Program-made: the position numbers and the translations under genes
Notes under the pieces: model-generated
Told to the model about the DNA's origin: nothing
Databases searched by the model: none
What the model saw: the letters and a program-made list of their open reading frames with translations, nothing else
Shown: positions 24,040 to 32,444 of the stretch, in pieces
How positions within the stretch are numbered: position 1 is the first letter of the stretch
Layout of the letters: the number at the start of each line of letters is the position of its first letter
Source: Bacilli bacterium
Lineage (GTDB): Bacteria; Bacillota_I; Bacilli_A; ML615J-28; CAG-698
Assembly (NCBI GenBank): GCA_050953065.1
Contig: JBMNLZ010000003.1
Coordinates: 224,001 to 288,000, forward strand
Direction: 5' to 3'
Length of the DNA stretch: 64,000 bases

Positions 24040-25170
24040 TTAAGATAATCTAGATTTAAAATCTTGATAACCAAATTCTTTAACTATTTTTACTTCACCA
24101 TTCTTTTCAACATAAACAATACTTGGTAAATTAATACCATTAAATGTATTATTCTTAACCATACTATAATGAGCCATATCAGTAAAAATAACTCTTTGTT
24201 TATATTCTAGTGGTTTATCAAATGAATAATCTCCAATAATATCTCCTGCTAAACATGTCGGTCCAGCAAAACGATAATTATATTTTTTTTCACCTAGCCT
24301 ACCACTGTTTAAAACAAATGGTCGATAAGGCATTTCTAAAACATCTGGCATATGACAAGCAGCCGAAGTATCTAGAATAGCAATATCCATATTATTATGA
24401 ACAATCTCTAAAACTTCTGATACTAAAAACCCAGTATTTAATGCGATGGCTTCGCCTGGTTCTAGGTAGACTTCTAAATTATATTTTTCTTTAATTTCAT
24501 TAATTGTTTTAATTAATAAGTCTAAATCATAATCATCTCTTGTAATATGATGACCTCCACCTAAATTAATCCATTTAATAGAAGAAAAATATTTTGAAAA
24601 CTTCTTTTCTACTTCTTTCCAAGTTCTATACAAAGTATCTGAATTTTGTTCACACATTGTATGGAAGTGTAGCCCTTCAAGCCCATCAAGCGTTTCAAAG
24701 TCTTCAAGCCTAACTCCAAGGCGCGAATTAATAGCACATGGATTATAAATCTCATGTTCAATTTCTGAATACTCGGGATTAATCCTCATCCCACAACTAA
24801 TATGTTTTTTATGGTTTTTAACTAAATTTTTATATTTATGCCATTGGTTAAATGAATTAAAGACAATATGATCCACTATATCTAGAATTTCAGACATTTC
24901 TTCTTCTTTATAAGCAGGAGAGAAAATATGATTTTCTTTACCTATTTTTCTCCCTAAAAGTGCTTCATGCAAAGATGAAGCAGTTGCTCCATAAAGATAC
25001 TTTGAAATTAATGGATATGTATAAAACATTGAAAAACCTTTTTGAGCCAATATTATTTTAGCGTTTGTTTTATCTTGAACTGTTTTTAGTTTTTCTAAGT
25101 TTTTTATTAATAATTCTTCAAACACTACATATGAAGGTGTTTTAACTTTATTCCAATCAAAGTTTTTCAT
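24040..25170 (-). CDS. nspC: Carboxy(nor)spermidine decarboxylase
   Basis: LAQKGF, GLHFH, GGGHHIT, EPGEA, HMPDVLEMPY and CLAGD motifs. Confidence 0.93.
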   Translation of the reverse strand: MKNFDWNKVKTPSYVVFEELLIKNLEKLKTVQDKTNAKIILAQKGFSMFYTYPLISKYLYGATASSLHEALLGRKIGKENHIFSPAYKEEEMSEILDIVDHIVFNSFNQWHKYKNLVKNHKKHISCGMRINPEYSEIEHEIYNPCAINSRLGVRLEDFETLDGLEGLHFHTMCEQNSDTLYRTWKEVEKKFSKYFSSIKWINLGGGHHITRDDYDLDLLIKTINEIKEKYNLEVYLEPGEAIALNTGFLVSEVLEIVHNNMDIAILDTSAACHMPDVLEMPYRPFVLNSGRLGEKKYNYRFAGPTCLAGDIIGDYSFDKPLEYKQRVIFTDMAHYSMVKNNTFNGINLPSIVYVEKNGEVKIVKEFGYQDFKSRLS

Positions 25171-25174
25171 ACTA

Positions 25175-26374
25175 TCAATCTACTAACTTTGGATTGAAGT
25201 CTTCATGCCAAGGAAGACCATATTTATTTAATGCTTCCATAAATGGATCTGGATCAAATTCTTCTACATTAAAGACACCTGGTTTTTTCCATTTCTTATT
25301 TAAAACAAGCATTGCTCCTATCATTGCAGGAACACCAGTTGTATATGAGATTGCTTGAGAACCAACTTCTTTATATGCTTCTTCATGATCACAAACATTA
25401 TAAACATAATATGTTTTATCTACACCATCTTTTTTACCTCTAATGATACAACCAATATTAGTTTTACCTTTAGTTCTTGGTCCAAGAGAAGCTGGATCTG
25501 GCAAAATTGCTTTTAAAAATTTTAGAGGAATAATTTCTTGCCCTTTATAATTAATCGGTTCAATTGAAGTCATTCCAATGTTTTCTAAAACTCTTAGGTG
25601 TGTTAAATATTTTTCAGAAAAAGTCATAAAAAATCTAATTCTTTTAATTCCCTTAATGTTTTTAGCAAGTGATTCTAATTCTTCATGATATAAAAGATAC
25701 ATATCTTTTTTACCAATTTTGGGAAAATCATATTCACGCTTCACTTCAAGTGGTAAAGTTTCAACAAACTTTCCATCTTCATAATATCTTCCGTTAGCTG
25801 TAATTTCTCTGATATTAATTTCCGGATTAAAGTTTGTTGCGAAATGATAGCCATGATCTCCTGCATTAGCATCTAGGATATCTAAATATTCAATTTCATC
25901 AAAATAATGTTTTTGAGCATAGGCAGTAAAGACTCCAGTTACACCAGGATCAAACCCACAGCCTAAAACTGCAGTAATTCCTGCTTTTTCAAACTTTTCT
26001 TTATATGCCCATTGCCATTTATATTCAAACTTTGCTTCATCTTTTGGTTCATAATTAGCTGTATCTAAATAATCTACCTTTGTTTCTAAACAAGCATCCA
26101 TAATAGATAAATCTTGATACGGTAATGCAACATTGATTACAATATCAGGTTTAAATTCTTTTATTATTGCTACTACCTCACTAGTATTATCTGCATCAAG
26201 TTGAGCAGTAGTAACTTTTGTTTTATATTTTTTTACACTTTCCTTAATCGCATCACATTTAGCAAGCGTTCTACTCGCAATACAAATTTCCTTAAAAACT
26301 TCACTGTTTTGGCAACACTTATGCACGACAACGTTTGCCACTCCACCAGCTCCAATAATTAATGCTCTACTCAT
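25175..26374 (-). CDS. Carboxy(nor)spermidine dehydrogenase (saccharopine dehydrogenase family)
   Basis: GAGGVA, YLDTANYEP, GCGFDPG and FATNFNPEINIRE motifs; adjacent to nspC. Confidence 0.9.
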   Translation of the reverse strand: MSRALIIGAGGVANVVVHKCCQNSEVFKEICIASRTLAKCDAIKESVKKYKTKVTTAQLDADNTSEVVAIIKEFKPDIVINVALPYQDLSIMDACLETKVDYLDTANYEPKDEAKFEYKWQWAYKEKFEKAGITAVLGCGFDPGVTGVFTAYAQKHYFDEIEYLDILDANAGDHGYHFATNFNPEINIREITANGRYYEDGKFVETLPLEVKREYDFPKIGKKDMYLLYHEELESLAKNIKGIKRIRFFMTFSEKYLTHLRVLENIGMTSIEPINYKGQEIIPLKFLKAILPDPASLGPRTKGKTNIGCIIRGKKDGVDKTYYVYNVCDHEEAYKEVGSQAISYTTGVPAMIGAMLVLNKKWKKPGVFNVEEFDPDPFMEALNKYGLPWHEDFNPKLVD

Positions 26375-26405
26375 AGTAAACGTCTCCTTTATTTAATATA
26401 TTTTT

Positions 26406-27257
26406 TTATAATTGTAATAATAATTCTCTTAATAACTTGCAAGCAACTGCAGTTGAAGTCCCACTTGGGTCAAGCGGAGGTGATAATTCATTAATATCAC
26501 AACCAACAATATTGCAACCCTTTAAAACTTTACCCATTGCTTCAAGTAATTCTAAAAATGTTACTCCACCTGGTTCTGGAGTTCCTGTTCCCCAAAAATA
26601 TGATGGATCTAACACATCTAAATCTAGTGTAAAATACACTGGTTTCCCTTTTGTTTTTTCAATTGCGGAATCAAGCCCATCAAAATTAAATTTGGTTAAG
26701 CAAGAATGGATTTTAGCCCATTCAAACTCTTCTTTTTCTCCGCTTCTAATTCCAAATTGGAATATTTTATTATCACCAATTAAATCATGAATTCTTCTAA
26801 TAACAGTTGCATGTGATAATTTTTCATCAAAGAATTCATCTCTTAAATCAGTATGTGCGTCAAAATGAATCACATGCAAATCAGGATATTTTTTTAAAAC
26901 TCCCTTAACAGCACCAAGTGTTACTAAATGTTCACCACCTAGCATTACTGGAATCTTATTGTCTTTTACAACTTGTGTTGTATACTTTTCAATTTTTTCA
27001 ATAGATTTTTTAGCATCTCCAAAAGGTAATACTAAATCTCCTCCATCAAAAACAAAAATATCCGTTAATGATTTATCTAAATACGGACTATATAGTTCAA
27101 GTCCAATACTATCTGTTCTAATACTACTTGGTGCAAATCTAGAACCTGGTCTAAAAGATGAAGTACTGTCAAATGGTGCTCCAAACAATACTATTTTACT
27201 TTCTTTATATGACTTATCACAACCAAGAAAGGCATATCGCTTTTCTGTTATAATCAT
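26406..27257 (-). CDS. speB: Agmatinase
   Basis: GGEH, DAHTD and DLDVLDP...GTGTPEPGG ureohydrolase motifs. Confidence 0.92.
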   Translation of the reverse strand: MIITEKRYAFLGCDKSYKESKIVLFGAPFDSTSSFRPGSRFAPSSIRTDSIGLELYSPYLDKSLTDIFVFDGGDLVLPFGDAKKSIEKIEKYTTQVVKDNKIPVMLGGEHLVTLGAVKGVLKKYPDLHVIHFDAHTDLRDEFFDEKLSHATVIRRIHDLIGDNKIFQFGIRSGEKEEFEWAKIHSCLTKFNFDGLDSAIEKTKGKPVYFTLDLDVLDPSYFWGTGTPEPGGVTFLELLEAMGKVLKGCNIVGCDINELSPPLDPSGTSTAVACKLLRELLLQL

Positions 27258-28090
27258 TTAATTAACTCCTTTACATAATTAGGTAGCGCAAAAGAACCTT
27301 TGTGTAGTTCTTCATTATAATATTTACATTCTATTTTAAAATCTTTCCAAGCACTATCTACTACATCACCCTTAAACTTCTTAGATGCAAAGCCAAACAA
27401 CCAATGACCTGACGGATAGGTTGGAATATGTGCTTGATATACCTGACAAATATCAAAGAAGCTAGAAATTCTTTGATGCATTTTAGTAACCATATCTTTA
27501 TATTGTTCATAAAATGGGCTTTCATGTTGATTAATTAAAATTCCATTTTCATTTAAAGCATTATAACAATTTCCATAAAACTCTTTTGCAAAAAGCCCTT
27601 CTCCAGGACCAAATGGATCAGTTGAGTCTACAATTATTAAATCATAATAATCTTTAATTTGTCTAACAGCTTTTAAGCCATCTTCAAATTTAATTGTTAC
27701 TCTTTCATCTTTAAAGCCTCTTGTAAGATGCGGAAAATATTCAATACATTTTTCAACTACTACTTTATCAATTTCAATCATTGTAATTTCTTTAATAGTT
27801 TTATATTTTACCAATTGACTAACAGTTCCACCATCCCCTGCTCCAATTACTAAAACTTTTTCTATTTTTGGATTAACTGCCATCGGAAGATGAGTCACCA
27901 TTTCATGGTAGATGAATTCATCTTTTTCTGTAATCATTAAAACACCATCTAAAACTAAAATTCTACCATAATCATATGTATCTAGGATATCAAGTTTTTG
28001 ATATTCTGATTTTACACTACATAAATGTTCTTTTATTTTCATAGTAAGTTTAGCTGTTTCACTATGTAATTCTGAAAACCAAAGTTCCAT
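27254..28090 (-). CDS. speE: Spermidine synthase (polyamine aminopropyltransferase)
   Basis: DEFIYHEM, IGAGDGG, DSTDP and PTYPSG motifs. Confidence 0.93.
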   Translation of the reverse strand: MELWFSELHSETAKLTMKIKEHLCSVKSEYQKLDILDTYDYGRILVLDGVLMITEKDEFIYHEMVTHLPMAVNPKIEKVLVIGAGDGGTVSQLVKYKTIKEITMIEIDKVVVEKCIEYFPHLTRGFKDERVTIKFEDGLKAVRQIKDYYDLIIVDSTDPFGPGEGLFAKEFYGNCYNALNENGILINQHESPFYEQYKDMVTKMHQRISSFFDICQVYQAHIPTYPSGHWLFGFASKKFKGDVVDSAWKDFKIECKYYNEELHKGSFALPNYVKELIK

Positions 28091-28092
28091 AT

Positions 28093-29538
28093 TTATTCCT
28101 CTACTATATTAATTTTTTCAATATTCATATCTTGCGGACCAATAATTAAACATCCTTTATCTTTAGCATACATTATATAGTCAATGATTTCAGCTGTAAT
28201 TACTTCGCCTGGTGCTAAAATTGGAATTCCCGGAGGATAACTCATTAAGAATTCTCCAGCAATTTTACCATAACTTTCTTCAATACTAACCTTTTTCTTT
28301 TTACTATAAAAAGCCTTTTGAGGACTCATTACAGGTAATGGATTAATATATTCATGATCAAAAAGACCAATCGGATCTTTTCCATAACGTCTTTTAATTT
28401 CAGATAAAGAAGCAATCAATCTTTCAATTTCTAAATCTCTATCTCCAGAAGAAATGATTGCTAGAATATTTCCAATATCTCCAAATTCAATTTGAATCCC
28501 GTAATCATCCCTTAAAATATCATAAACCTCTATTCCAGCCAAGCCCATTGCTCTTGTGTGAACTGATAGTTTTGTCATATCAAAATCAAAAACATTTTTC
28601 TTATCAACTATATCTTCTCCAAAAGCCCAGTATCCACCGATTTTATTTACTTCTTCTCTTGCATAATTAACATTTTCTAAAACTTTTTTTAACTTTTCTC
28701 TTCCATGTGCTACCATATGTTTTCTTGCAATATCAAGAGATGATAACAATAAATAAGATCCACTTGTAGTTTGAGTAAGATTTATAATTTGTCTAACATA
28801 AGTATGATCTACATTTTTCCCACAAAGCAAAAACGAACTTTGAGTTAATGAATTTCCAGTCTTATGCATACTAGCAGCTGCCATATCAGCTCCTGCTGCC
28901 ATCGCAGAAATTGGTAAGTTATCTCCAAAATAAAAGTGCGTTCCATGAGCCTCATCTACTAACACTTTCATATTATGTGCATGAGCAAGTTCAACGATTC
29001 CTTTTAAATCTGAACATATCCCATAATAAGTTGGATTATTAACAAAAATTGCTTTTGCATCTGGATTTTCTTTGATTGCTTTTTTTACATCATCCATACT
29101 CATTCCAAGTGCAATCCCTAAATCTTTACTAACACCAGGATTAATATATACAGGAATCGCCCCACAAACAACCATCGCATTAATTGCACTTCTGTGGACA
29201 TTTCTTGGTAAAATTAATTTTTCACCTTGTTTACAACTACTCATTATCATTGCTTGAACAGCTGAAGTTGTTCCACTAACCATAAAAAATGCATGATGAG
29301 CTTTAAAAGCCTCTGCTGCTAAGAGTTCAGCTTCTTTGATAACTCCAGTTGGATGACAAAGGCTATCCACATCTTTCATAGAATTAACATCTGCTCTCAT
29401 ACAATTAATTCCTAAAAATTCAGTTAATTCAGGATTGCCCCTTCCACCTTTATGGCTAGGCACATCAAATGGTACTATACGATTTTGTTGGTGAGCTTTT
29501 ATTGCTTCATAAATTGGTGCTCTTGTTTGATCTTTCAT
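28093..29538 (-). CDS. speA: Arg/Lys/Orn decarboxylase (PLP fold I), probably arginine decarboxylase
   Basis: VDEAHG, SMHKT and YPPGIP motifs; precedes speE/speB; substrate inferred from context. Confidence 0.8.
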   Translation of the reverse strand: MKDQTRAPIYEAIKAHQQNRIVPFDVPSHKGGRGNPELTEFLGINCMRADVNSMKDVDSLCHPTGVIKEAELLAAEAFKAHHAFFMVSGTTSAVQAMIMSSCKQGEKLILPRNVHRSAINAMVVCGAIPVYINPGVSKDLGIALGMSMDDVKKAIKENPDAKAIFVNNPTYYGICSDLKGIVELAHAHNMKVLVDEAHGTHFYFGDNLPISAMAAGADMAAASMHKTGNSLTQSSFLLCGKNVDHTYVRQIINLTQTTSGSYLLLSSLDIARKHMVAHGREKLKKVLENVNYAREEVNKIGGYWAFGEDIVDKKNVFDFDMTKLSVHTRAMGLAGIEVYDILRDDYGIQIEFGDIGNILAIISSGDRDLEIERLIASLSEIKRRYGKDPIGLFDHEYINPLPVMSPQKAFYSKKKKVSIEESYGKIAGEFLMSYPPGIPILAPGEVITAEIIDYIMYAKDKGCLIIGPQDMNIEKINIVEE

Positions 29539-29548
29539 GTTTCACCTT

Positions 29549-30331
29549 TTAGTAAATATTAGTTCCACTAAATATTTCAATCATTTCTTTTCTTAAACTA
29601 TTTGTTATTTCAAGTCTTACTTTTGGGTCTAATTCATAAACATCTGTATTAAATAAATAATGTTGTAAGTTGATTTCCTTAATTAACATTTTTGTATGAA
29701 AAATGTTAGATTGATAAACATTAACATCAATTGCATCATATATTTTTAAAGTATCAGAACTTATATAGTCTTGAATTGAAGTAATTGAATGGTCTAAAAA
29801 ATGTTTTTTTCCATCTGTATCTCTTGTAAAGCCTCTAACTCTATAATCAATTGTTATAATATCAGAATCAAAACTACTAATTAAAAAGTCTAGGGTACTT
29901 AATGGAGAAATTGTTCCACATGTAGAAACATCAATATCTACTCTAAAAGTAGAAATATTGTTAGCAGGATTATATTCAGGATATGTATGAACTGTGATGT
30001 GGCTTTTATCTAAATGCCCCATAAAATATTTATCAAAATCTTTTCCTAGATTGCATGACTTATCAACCAATTGTTTATCAATTGGTTCTTCTACTAATAA
30101 TAAGTTAACACTTGCTCCTTGTGGCTCATAATCTTGTTTTGAAATGTTTAAAATTTTTGCACCGATTAATTCTGAAACCTTACAAAGAATCGCTGTTAAT
30201 CTTTCACTGTTATATTGTTCATCGATATATGCAATATAATCTAAGTGTTCTCTTTTTGTTTTAGCATAACAAATATCAAAAATGTTAAAGCTTAATGTTT
30301 TTGTTAGATTGTTAAAACCGTATAATTCCAT
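29549..30331 (-). CDS. speD: S-adenosylmethionine decarboxylase proenzyme (class 1A)
   Basis: LYGFNNLTK, QDYEPQGAS, HLDKSHITVHTYPE and DVSTCG motifs. Confidence 0.93.
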   Translation of the reverse strand: MELYGFNNLTKTLSFNIFDICYAKTKREHLDYIAYIDEQYNSERLTAILCKVSELIGAKILNISKQDYEPQGASVNLLLVEEPIDKQLVDKSCNLGKDFDKYFMGHLDKSHITVHTYPEYNPANNISTFRVDIDVSTCGTISPLSTLDFLISSFDSDIITIDYRVRGFTRDTDGKKHFLDHSITSIQDYISSDTLKIYDAIDVNVYQSNIFHTKMLIKEINLQHYLFNTDVYELDPKVRLEITNSLRKEMIEIFSGTNIY

Positions 30332-30364
30332 GTGTCTTCTCCTTCAAAGATTATTTTAAATATA

Positions 30365-30390
30365 AAAAACCTAATTGACTAATTAGGTTT
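30365..30390 (-). terminator. Leader terminator upstream of speD
   Basis: AAACCUAAUU-AGUC-AAUUAGGUUU followed by further Us, about 35 nt before the speD start. Confidence 0.8.
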
Positions 30391-30450
30391 AATAGGTTTC
30401 TTACATAATTCTAGTTATTGTTTGTGATAATACTAGCATATATCAAAAAC

Positions 30451-30568
30451 CTATTAAATTGCGGATTTTACCGACGGCTCCGGAATCTCACCAGAACTTA
30501 TTTAACATGGGCTCGTTGACATATGTCACATTACCACCGATGAAGTTATGGAATACTCCACCTAATAA
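30451..30568 (-). ncRNA. FMN-riboswitch-like variant RNA with altered ligand junction, leading the polyamine operon
   Basis: CGGUGGUA...CGA and UUCUGG-UGAGAUU-CCGGAG-CCG-U-CGG-UAAAAU-CCG reproduce RFN P3/P5/P6; P1 UUAUUAGG/UUUAAUAG; GGGGCA and GAUGRGA junctions are absent. Confidence 0.75.
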
Positions 30569-30575
30569 CAATGTT

Positions 30576-30604
30576 AGTTTATCATAATAGTGTTGTTGTG
30601 TCAA
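30576..30604 (-). promoter_or_regulatory. Sigma-A promoter of the speD leader
   Basis: TTGACA-17-TAAACT with extended -10 TG; predicted +1 near 30569, at the start of P1. Confidence 0.75.
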
Positions 30605-30617
30605 TTACTTTTATCTT

Positions 30618-32444
30618 TTATTTGCCTTTTATATAATACCTTTTAGGAGACGTTTTTTTATATTTAATCAAACAAGTATTCTTATCTCCAATTAAATCAC
30701 TACGCCCTGCTTTAATTAAAGCCTCTTTTACTAATTCATAGTTTTGAGGTAAATGATACTGTAAAAGAGCTCTTTGCATTGCTTTTTCGTGTTTATCTTT
30801 TGCAACATAAACCTTATCTTTTAAGAATGGATCCATTTCTGTATAATACATACAAGTTGAAGCTGTCCCTGGGGTTGGATAAAAATCTTGAACTTGTTCA
30901 GGTCGATATTTATTTTCTTTTAAATAAAGTGCTAACTTTATAGCAGAAGAAATTGTTGAACCAGGATGAGATGATATTAAATAAGGAACAAGAAACTGTT
31001 TCTTATCATATTTTTCATTTAATCTTTTAAATTCTTCTACAAAGCTATCATATAGTTTTTTAGAAGGTTTTCCCATTCTTACTAAAACATCATCATCTAT
31101 ATGTTCTGGTGCAACTTTTAGTTGCCCTGAAATATGATGCTTAACTAACTCTTCAAAAAACTCTTTATTCTTATCATACATTATATAATCATATCTTAAA
31201 CCACTTCTAATAAAGACTTTTTTAACATTATCAAGCCCTCTTAGAGTTTTTAAAATCTCTAAATATTCTTTATGACTTACTTCCAGTCTTTCACAAGGAT
31301 TAAAACCAATACACTCTTTATTAACGCAAGCTCCATGTTCTTCTTGTTTACTACAAGCTTTATTATAAAAATTAGCAGTAGGTCCTCCAACATCATGAAT
31401 ATAACCTTTAAAATCAGACATCGCAGTAATCAACAAAGCTTCATTTACAATAGAGTCTTTACTTCTTGATTGAATGATTCTGCCTTGATGCATTGTTAAT
31501 GCACAAAAATTACAGCCTCCAAAACACCCTCTATTAGCAACAATTGAAAACTTAACTTCATCAATCGCTGGAACATGTCCTTTTTTTTCAATTAAAGGAT
31601 GAGTTTTTCTCATGTAAGGCAATTCATAAACTGCATCTAATTCTTTCCTCGACAAAGGAAATTCAGGTGGATTTTGAACTACATATTCTTTATCATAAAC
31701 TTCAACTAAGGCTTTTCCACTAAATGCATCAGTATTATTATATTGCATAATGAAACTATTTAAATAATCTTCTTTATTATTTACTATTTCTTTATAGGTA
31801 GGTAACTTTAAATACTCATATGCTACCATATCTAAAGACCTAGTTTTATAAACTGTATTTCTGATATATATTATATCTTTAATATCCATCCCGCTATTTA
31901 GCGCATCTGCTATTTCAACAATAGGTTTTTCTCCCATCCCATAAACCACTATATCAGCTTTAGAATCTATTACTATTGATTTTAAAACTTTATTATCCCA
32001 ATAATCATAATGAGCAAGTCTTCTTAGTGATGCTTCAATTCCACCTAATATAATAGGAGTATCTGGATAAAGTTCTTTAATAATTCTAGAATAAACTATA
32101 ACTGCTCTATCAGGCCTTTTTCCCATTTCACCATTTGGGGTATAATAGTCCTTCGTTCTTCTTCTTTTAGCTACTGTATAATGATTAACCATTGAATCAA
32201 TATTCCCGCTACTTACTAAAAACCCTAAACGAGGTTTCCCAAATTCTTTAAATTCTTCTTTTGTTTTAATATCTGGTTGAGAAATAATACAACACTTATA
32301 ACCAAAATTTTCAAGAACTCTAGTAATAATTGCACAACCAAAACTTGGATGGTCAATATAAGCATCCCCAGTAACAAATATAAAATCAGGTTCTTCTATA
32401 CCTTGATTAAGCATTTCTTTTCTTGTAAGTGGTAAAAAAGGCAT
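30618..32444 (-). CDS. ygiQ: YgiQ-family radical SAM protein
   Basis: GDAYIDHPSFG, RGCFGGCNFC and QVQDFYPTP motifs. Confidence 0.92.
   Translation of the reverse strand: MPFLPLTRKEMLNQGIEEPDFIFVTGDAYIDHPSFGCAIITRVLENFGYKCCIISQPDIKTKEEFKEFGKPRLGFLVSSGNIDSMVNHYTVAKRRRTKDYYTPNGEMGKRPDRAVIVYSRIIKELYPDTPIILGGIEASLRRLAHYDYWDNKVLKSIVIDSKADIVVYGMGEKPIVEIADALNSGMDIKDIIYIRNTVYKTRSLDMVAYEYLKLPTYKEIVNNKEDYLNSFIMQYNNTDAFSGKALVEVYDKEYVVQNPPEFPLSRKELDAVYELPYMRKTHPLIEKKGHVPAIDEVKFSIVANRGCFGGCNFCALTMHQGRIIQSRSKDSIVNEALLITAMSDFKGYIHDVGGPTANFYNKACSKQEEHGACVNKECIGFNPCERLEVSHKEYLEILKTLRGLDNVKKVFIRSGLRYDYIMYDKNKEFFEELVKHHISGQLKVAPEHIDDDVLVRMGKPSKKLYDSFVEEFKRLNEKYDKKQFLVPYLISSHPGSTISSAIKLALYLKENKYRPEQVQDFYPTPGTASTCMYYTEMDPFLKDKVYVAKDKHEKAMQRALLQYHLPQNYELVKEALIKAGRSDLIGDKNTCLIKYKKTSPKRYYIKGK

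Follow-up and report, generated by a model that had tools for sequence, protein, structure and literature searches.

A remodelled FMN-aptamer-like leader before a six-gene polyamine operon in Bacilli: a candidate lineage-specific variant riboswitch

Introduction

To our knowledge, only one class of polyamine-sensing riboswitches has been validated, the SAM-I variant of 2023, and the widespread ldcC motif is still an orphan. In the available text of its description, that SAM-I variant, the spermidine riboswitch, is an OFF switch located before speD, speE, speB, and ldcC genes (Salvail et al. 2023, PMC10853860). According to the available part of its original report, the ldcC motif probably regulates arginine, ornithine, and SAM decarboxylase genes in cis and may contribute to polyamine homeostasis; it has no assigned ligand (Weinberg et al. 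2017, PMC5737381). Two variant subtypes of the FMN riboswitch, close to the consensus and grouped with FMN in Rfam, differ from it mainly at the nucleotides contacting the ribityl or phosphate moieties; according to the accessible portion of that paper, all of them precede COG3601 or multidrug-efflux transporter genes, and flavin derivatives are ligands of subtype 2 (Atilho, Perkins and Breaker 2019, PMC6298564). Full-text literature searches turned up no polyamine-gene leader derived from FMN, and in the accessible text of PMC6298564 the word spermidine appears solely as a transcription-buffer component.

The leader considered here precedes speD on the minus strand of a 64,000-nt stretch of Bacilli DNA, hereafter the window, and a preliminary description had read it as an FMN-riboswitch scaffold with a rewritten ligand pocket, operating as an OFF switch on spermidine biosynthesis and possibly founding a new riboswitch class. 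Like the FMN variants of PMC6298564, the element is FMN-derived, carries altered pocket nucleotides, and is unlinked to riboflavin biosynthesis; in contrast to them it has been remodelled much more extensively and stands at the head of a polyamine operon, and both its gene context and the extent of its divergence set it apart from subtypes 1 and 2 as these are described in the published text. With the spermidine riboswitch it shares an association with spermidine-pathway genes, and in both a scaffold of cofactor-aptamer origin serves speD, speE, speB, and decarboxylase genes, with an OFF logic proposed; however, in the available description (PMC10853860) the former is a SAM-I four-helix junction for which binding was demonstrated, whereas the region 30300-30660 has no SAM-family match at E up to 10. 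The ldcC motif, as described in the available text, is an orphan cis-regulatory RNA of Firmicutes before decarboxylase and SAM-decarboxylase genes, and in the four closest speD loci with a leader it takes the equivalent position; it is, however, a 54-nt bulged hairpin of unrelated sequence and fold; its Rfam family, RF02440, gives no match in 30300-30660 at E up to 10, the ldcC core does not occur in the window with up to 4 substitutions, and neither this genome nor that of the sister species has an RF02440 match at E up to 1. The sister species is throughout the second species of the genus (genome G001; loci L004, L006, and L126), complemented by a metagenome contig of the same species (L103) that is 98.9% identical to L006.

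The speD leader and its operon

The minus-strand gap of 286 nt between a YgiQ-family radical SAM gene (30618-32444) and speD is made up of a promoter, an FMN-like element, and a hairpin with a U-run, and the minus-strand sequence quoted in the preliminary description was found there as given. The promoter (30576-30604, minus strand) is of the sigma-70 type, with a -35 TTGACA at 30599-30604, a 17-nt spacer, an upstream TG, and a -10 TAAACT at 30576-30581, that is, 10 of 12 hexamer positions matched; it bears out the promoter that had been proposed upstream of the element, and its predicted transcription start lies at about 30569-30572. The sister species has the same two hexamers and the same TG but a diverged spacer, and the three differences of a strain variant in this region (30590, 30592, and 30593) all fall in the spacer. 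A Shine-Dalgarno sequence follows the terminator hairpin and its U-run. Metatranscriptome contigs from one run cover 30325-30536 with no differences, across the terminator and into the start of speD, and a contig from a second RNA run spans the promoter (30547-30697); in both, the depth is 2-6 and DNA carry-over is possible, and neither is taken here as a sign of transcription or read-through.

The first gene, already named as speD in the preliminary description, encodes a SAM decarboxylase of the E. coli type (29549-30331, minus strand; TIGR03331, 406 bits). Five further genes follow on the same strand (24040-29538): a PLP-dependent Orn/Lys/Arg decarboxylase (28093-29538), speE (27254-28090), the agmatinase gene speB (26406-27257), a carboxynorspermidine synthase (25175-26374), and nspC (24040-25170; TIGR01047). 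The element thus heads a six-gene polyamine operon, as the assignment to spermidine biosynthesis had anticipated, and the earlier remark that no riboflavin gene follows holds for the whole operon, in which no flavin gene was found. This is a clear difference from the FMN riboswitch, which is associated with riboflavin biosynthesis or transport genes.

Relationship to the FMN aptamer

A cmscan of 30300-30660 aligns positions 30445-30574 of the minus strand to the full RF00050 model (1-138) with 36.4 bits and an E-value of 6.9e-7, and a whole-genome search returns the same match at 7.2e-7. This is about 30 bits below the gathering score of the family (66.2 bits), so that the element does not qualify as a family member by score; at gathering thresholds, no FMN riboswitch is reported in the window, where the Rfam matches are three c-di-GMP-I riboswitches elsewhere, and in 30300-30660 no other Rfam family scores better than E 1. 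The partial, low-scoring FMN hit that had been predicted is therefore what the search gives, and a full match to another described Rfam motif, raised beforehand as a finding that would overturn the proposal, did not appear. The same genome carries a canonical FMN riboswitch elsewhere, with 120.7 bits, before a gene for an ECF-transporter S component. Judged by its alignment, the element is homologous to the FMN aptamer, as proposed; nevertheless, partial homology is the only FMN-class property, among those tested, that it retains.

The anatomy was derived from the cmscan alignment and from a MAFFT alignment with seven canonical aptamers, six of them Clostridial and one from this genome. Besides aligning over the full length, lying in a 5'-UTR, and being followed by a terminator, the element keeps from the FMN riboswitch P3a (CG/CG), P3 with a long L3, P5 with its UGAGAUU loop, the GCCG-N-CGGUA motif, and P6. 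P2 (30540-30561, minus strand) is a hairpin of 7-8 bp with the loop AUUCCAUA in place of the canonical UGAAAUU-type loop, in agreement with the earlier claim of a non-canonical P2 loop; in the sister species the stem shows a one-sided change from G-U to A-U, and loop positions 30549-30550 vary among three lineages. P3 (30507-30537) has a long L3 with an internal mini-hairpin, of the Clostridial FMN type. It is followed by an 11-nt A/U-rich linker, GUUAAAUAAGU (30496-30506), which occupies the site of J3/4, P4, and J4/5 and is unpaired, so that P4 is absent. The segment 30462-30495, comprising P5 and L5 (UGAGAUU), the 3' strand of P3a, U30474, and P6 with L6 (UAAAAU), is the same in both species, and L6 has an A at the site of a canonical G.

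The ligand-contacting parts differ from the FMN riboswitch most. In the accessible text of PMC6298564, the pocket comprises the stacking adenines A48 and A85 together with A99, G10, G11, G32, G62, and G84. In the element, U30505 aligns to the J3/4 adenine and U30474 replaces the J5/6 adenine, so that each of the two sites corresponding to a flavin-stacking adenine has a U, with the mapping of A48 and A85 to alignment columns being inferred; by the same mapping, the P3a guanines and the G of J4/5 are kept, and one A is kept in J6/1, which leaves the pocket set incomplete. The reported replacement of the A between P3a and P6 by U is confirmed at U30474 and recurs in the sister species; that first reading had overlooked the absence of P4 and the second U, at the J3/4 adenine position. 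J1/2, described as missing, is not simply absent: a GGU is present and pairs with AUC, which lengthens P2 to 8 bp. The J6/1 segment reads CAAUU versus the canonical GAUGGGA. The claim that the FMN-contacting junctions are rewritten is upheld, and the changed states are kept in the sister species.

The closing helix is a further departure. The FMN-type P1 of the preliminary description (UUAUUA/UAAUAG) amounts to -1.9 kcal/mol here and to 0.0 in the sister species, where a U-to-A change breaks the pairing, and its existence is doubtful; of the six-helix junction P1-P6, therefore, P2, P3, P5, and P6 are present, P4 is absent, and P1 is negligible. An alternative closing helix, P1*, between 30500-30514 and 30447-30460, reaches about -7.7 kcal/mol and is found in both species, but it cannot coexist with P3 and also crosses P3a. 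The minimum-free-energy fold departs from an FMN-like architecture. The secondary structure is in consequence assigned for four hairpins, and pairing beyond them, for which FMN-type P1 and P1* compete, is tentative and doubtful.

Conservation between the two species

The two species are well diverged: four-fold degenerate sites of the flanking genes differ at 44-50%, coding DNA is 81-88% identical, and promoter-proximal DNA and the expression platform are 76.7% and 81.4% identical, respectively. Against the 77-81% of flanking non-coding DNA, the 130-nt aptamer is 93.8% identical. Its core, which extends from the P2 3' strand to the J6/1-like segment (30448-30548, minus strand), has 1 mismatch in 101 nt; among the 7000 windows of this length taken along a 7.1-kb alignment, none has fewer. 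The mean over these windows is 16.5 mismatches, and the best one that does not overlap the core lies in speE, with 4. Of the seven differences in the 126-nt alignment of the aptamer, five lie within its first 24 nt, one changes an A-U pair of the L3 mini-hairpin to G-U, and one is at the last position. A strain variant, represented by a DNA contig, has 36 differences, and among the 33 listed the aptamer is touched only at 30549, in L2, and at 30572. On these comparisons, L2 seems to be the sole part of the element that varies freely, and the pattern is one of strong purifying selection.

None of the 30 proposed pairs changes on both sides between the two species of the one genus from which the element is known. 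Such conservation would fit a protein-binding or ligand-independent RNA equally well. A decayed and relocated FMN switch, which had been named as the alternative to the proposal, is in turn contradicted, since no other stretch of 101 nt within the 7.1 kb is as well conserved as the core, despite the 44-50% change at four-fold sites.

Distribution and origin

In an RF00050 search of 106 genomes of the order, the sub-threshold, full-length element was found in two, this genome and that of the sister species, and the same two were the only ones among 57 genomes of the family; a further sub-threshold match in the order (G042) proved to be a canonical aptamer cut by a contig end. A BLAST search with the aptamer in 101 relatives returned these two and one 30-nt chance match. 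A covariance model of the variant (R1), which gives 161 bits on its own sequence, does not exceed 38 bits beyond the variant in 150 scored genomes of the Bacilli class; in 151 Clostridia it reaches up to 54.8 bits, and the six best matches, which were inspected, are canonical FMN aptamers, the higher Clostridial scores versus those of Bacilli coming from aptamers of the long-L3 type. On 91 speD loci, L001, and the window, apart from the variant and the canonical FMN riboswitch of this genome, nothing scores above 13.9 bits with R1, and a regex scan of 85 speD loci found the motif combination only in the sister-species contig L006. A metagenome-wide scan with exact patterns yielded 39 loci, with the variant only in L103, the sister-species strain; each of the remaining loci holds either the first half of a canonical FMN aptamer or a full FMN member in which the J5/6 adenine is replaced by G or C. 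Loci of the type of L086, which had looked like half FMN aptamers, are full-length FMN riboswitches of 83-84 bits with long P4 inserts. The expected recurrence of the element before polyamine genes hence holds for the sister species and its strain and for none of the other speD loci searched, and among the samples and patterns covered it was not found outside one genus of anaerobic-digester Bacilli.

SpeD proteins of this genus share 70-78% identity with their Clostridial counterparts, versus 57-64% with the SpeD of 11 other genomes of the order, and the long L3 of the variant is of the Clostridial FMN type. These two features suggest that the operon, and perhaps its leader too, came from an unsampled Clostridial donor. 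The canonical FMN riboswitch of this genome has the short L3 type, which makes it unlikely that the element arose by a recent duplication of that copy.

In the speD leaders of L007, L008, L011, and L016, whose SpeD proteins are 76-78% identical to the one studied here, the ldcC RNA is found with 64-71 bits (RF02440); these four are the closest speD relatives having a leader among the 91 speD loci. Such speD operons are accordingly commonly RNA-regulated, and before orthologous operons one leader RNA seems to take the place of another. A polyamine-related signal is, by this analogy, the most economical guess for the element, because the closest speD operons carry the ldcC RNA at the same place.

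Candidate switching strands and terminator

The expression platform contains two candidate pairings that use aptamer strands. The strand UUUAAUAGGUUU (30447-30458, minus strand), aligned to J6/1 and the 3' strand of P1 in the FMN aptamer, can pair with 30500-30514, as P1*, or with AAACCUAUUAAA (30388-30399), a candidate antiterminator. The latter helix, proposed in the preliminary description, is a perfect one of 12 bp, with -11.4 kcal/mol here and -11.1 in the sister species, an energy reached by 1 of 2000 shuffles; its partner strand 30388-30399 is conserved in the sister species within an otherwise diverged platform. The proposed overlap of this helix with the base of the terminator does exist, but it is only 3 nt. 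Immediately downstream of the switching strand, a linker (30424-30446) is complementary to P3/L3 and can form with 30516-30537 an anti-aptamer helix of about 21 bp, with -18.2 and -19.3 kcal/mol in the two species, likewise reached by 1 of 2000 shuffles. Between the species, 20 of 21 nt are identical in 30426-30446, whereas the next approximately 25 nt have diverged, and a C-to-U change at 30436 faces an A-to-G change at 30526, which turns an A-C mismatch of the anti-aptamer helix into a G-U pair.

The terminator (30364-30390, minus strand) consists of a hairpin at 30367-30390 with -7.8 kcal/mol and 2 G-C pairs, followed by a U-run, and a simple terminator scan requiring 3 G-C pairs does not report it; the terminator noted earlier at 30365-30390 is thus borne out as a hairpin with a U-run, albeit a weak one. 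In the sister species, the base of the stem and the U-run are kept and the loop is different. When the 12-bp helix forms, the terminator loses the three A-U pairs at its base and weakens from -7.8 to -4.3 kcal/mol. Every thermodynamic model contains the terminator, and in the minimum-free-energy fold the anti-aptamer helix occurs together with the full terminator; a pairing of the 5' end with 30407-30420 in that fold was discarded because it is not conserved in the sister species. The terminator hairpin is weak in every state.

Possible modes of regulation

The element is probably a regulatory RNA that no longer reads FMN, because P4 and the FMN-type P1 are lost and the ligand-contacting junctions are rewritten. 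That it binds a ligand, which ligand this is, and in which direction it switches are points that we infer. The reading we prefer, and in which our confidence is evenly balanced, is that of a functional, lineage-specific regulatory leader derived from a Clostridial-type FMN aptamer, no longer responding to FMN and acting through the terminator as a polyamine OFF switch. In such a leader, the peripheral domain P3-L3/P5-L5, P3a, and P6 would have been kept from the ancestral aptamer, and the six-gene operon would be controlled via the intrinsic terminator at 30364-30390. The folded, probably ligand-bound aptamer would hold P3/L3 and the strand 30447-30458; lacking that stabilisation, the continuous strand 30424-30458 would pair backwards with P3/L3 and forwards with 30388-30399. 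Since its two parts are contiguous and in the order of an H-type pseudoknot, both helices could coexist and stack coaxially, with no nucleotides between the stems, an arrangement that nested folding programs cannot display. The 12-bp helix would then trim the already weak terminator and transcription would proceed, and the stabilised aptamer would withhold both strands, allow the full terminator, and shut the operon. The preferred signal would be a pathway end product (spermidine or a close polyamine), and the switch would be functionally analogous to the ldcC RNA heading the closest speD operons. Against this OFF model stand the terminator overlap of only 3 nt, the weakness of the terminator, and its full formation in the minimum-free-energy fold. 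Of the OFF switch as first conceived, working through the 3' strand of P1, the part that depends on an FMN-type P1 is doubtful, that helix being negligible and not conserved.

The strongest competing explanation, which we consider unlikely but of some weight, is that the leader senses no metabolite and that the former FMN scaffold serves a protein, confers sensitivity to cations or temperature, or works as a fixed attenuator setting a basal level. It draws on the fact that conservation indicates function and not ligand binding, on a distribution restricted to one genus with covariation absent in all 30 pairs, and on a terminator present in every model; nevertheless, near-invariant loops and junctions over 101 nt exceed what a simple attenuator hairpin needs, two significant and mutually exclusive pairings use aptamer strands, and related operons carry a riboswitch-like orphan RNA, the ldcC motif (PMC5737381, in its available text).

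An ON switch appears rather improbable. In it, the ligand would hold P3/L3, block the anti-aptamer helix, and free 30447-30458 for the 12-bp antiterminator, and the ligand would be a precursor or demand signal (SAM, arginine, agmatine, or putrescine, for instance) instead of the end product. Two points suit an ON switch: an FMN-type P1 able to sequester 30447-30458 is, as noted, negligible and not conserved, and in nested folding the anti-aptamer helix and P1* hide that strand and allow the full terminator. However, biosynthetic operons are usually under end-product OFF control, and the pseudoknot geometry, which lets both alternative helices coexist, fits the OFF model; the published spermidine riboswitch is also described, in the text available, as an OFF switch (PMC10853860).

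It is very unlikely that the element still senses a flavin (FMN or riboflavin, or one of their analogues or degradation products) and so couples polyamine synthesis to flavin status. The homology itself, the retained P3a G-C pairs and L3/L5 modules, and the binding of flavin derivatives by published FMN variants (PMC6298564, in its accessible part) speak for it, but both stacking-adenine positions are U, J1/2 is absorbed in P2, J6/1 is rewritten, P4 is lost, the score is 30 bits under the family cut-off, the operon has no flavin gene, and the genome already possesses a canonical FMN switch. Finally, a neutral, decaying FMN-riboswitch relic carried on transferred DNA, with which the sub-threshold score, the lost helices, and a SpeD closer to Clostridia (70-78%) than to its own order (57-64%) would agree, is hardly credible for the most conserved 101 nt in 7.1 kb next to four-fold sites diverged by 44-50%.

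Conclusions

In summary, the comparison of sequences makes the polyamine leader of this genus a credible candidate for a lineage-specific variant riboswitch, probably with a polyamine-related ligand, short of a demonstrated new class. The FMN homology, the constraint on the element, and the polyamine operon behind it are supported; the earlier suggestion of a new class is not, given the occurrence in one genus (two species and strain variants) and the lack of compensatory change in 30 pairs. In a bolder formulation, that of a new riboswitch class, half of the FMN fold (P3-L3/P5-L5, P3a, and P6) would have lost P4 and P1 and become an aptamer for spermidine or another metabolite of the polyamine pathway, would act through a pseudoknotted double antiterminator, and would have replaced the ldcC RNA; we hold this only tentatively, as less likely than not.

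The weakness of the case is rarity, one genus of anaerobic-digester Bacilli; the candidate is, on the other hand, short, with its promoter and terminator defined, and thus directly testable. If true, it would be a second, independent instance of a cofactor aptamer recruited to polyamine control, in this case before a full spermidine operon, and an exceptionally far-reaching change of the FMN fold, in which P4 and P1 were lost and both stacking adenines replaced. Moreover, its location at the site of the ldcC RNA in the closest operons offers a comparative handle on the ldcC ligand: if this RNA was indeed replaced by the element, the ldcC RNA would sense the same ligand.

FMN aptamers among the metagenome loci

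The pattern used to scan metagenomes was designed on the P5–P3a–P6 half of the FMN-aptamer-like leader that precedes speD (30445-30574, minus strand); what it matched, however, was mostly the P2–P3a–P3 half of canonical FMN aptamers (e.g., loci L087-L090 and L093-L097), because the FMN fold has an internal two-fold sequence symmetry. Among the metagenome loci, the stacking adenine of J5/6 is replaced by G or C in three groups of FMN aptamers: the first comprises L086, L091, L098, and L119, together with a cut copy in L107; the second, L092, L100, L104, L110, and L121; and the third, L101 and L122. These aptamers score 71-87 bits, above the gathering threshold; in several of them J6/1 reads AAUGGGAG instead of GAUGGGAG, and in some the P4 inserts are very long.

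Genomic context and distribution of speD

In the window, a single operon (24040-30331, minus strand) encodes both routes to spermidine, the first through speD and speE with a decarboxylase and an agmatinase, and the second through a carboxynorspermidine synthase and nspC. The distribution of speD in the order is patchy (13 of 106 genomes), and none of the 11 speD loci from its other genera gave an FMN-like or ldcC match at E <= 0.1; in one speD locus, L132, a lysine riboswitch lies 3′ of the gene. The ldcC RNA (RF02440) occurs in the speD leaders of the closest Clostridial SpeD relatives, at 532-604 in L007, 1139-1194 in L008, 1171-1226 in L011, and 1206-1264 in L016, and in these four leaders it is followed by a terminator-like hairpin immediately ahead of the ribosome-binding site. 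Elsewhere in the window, three c-di-GMP-I riboswitch aptamers (RF01051; 9069-9146, 9970-10047, and 11255-11332, all minus strand; 55-58 bits) with almost identical cores lie within 2.3 kb.

Divergence around the leader promoter

Among the differences listed for the strain-variant DNA contig of run X9, those at 30590-30951, upstream of the promoter and covering the 3′ end of a radical SAM gene, amount to approximately 6 per 100 nt, versus approximately 1 per 100 nt in speD (compared over 29400-30331). This disparity suggests a recombination boundary close to the promoter of the leader.
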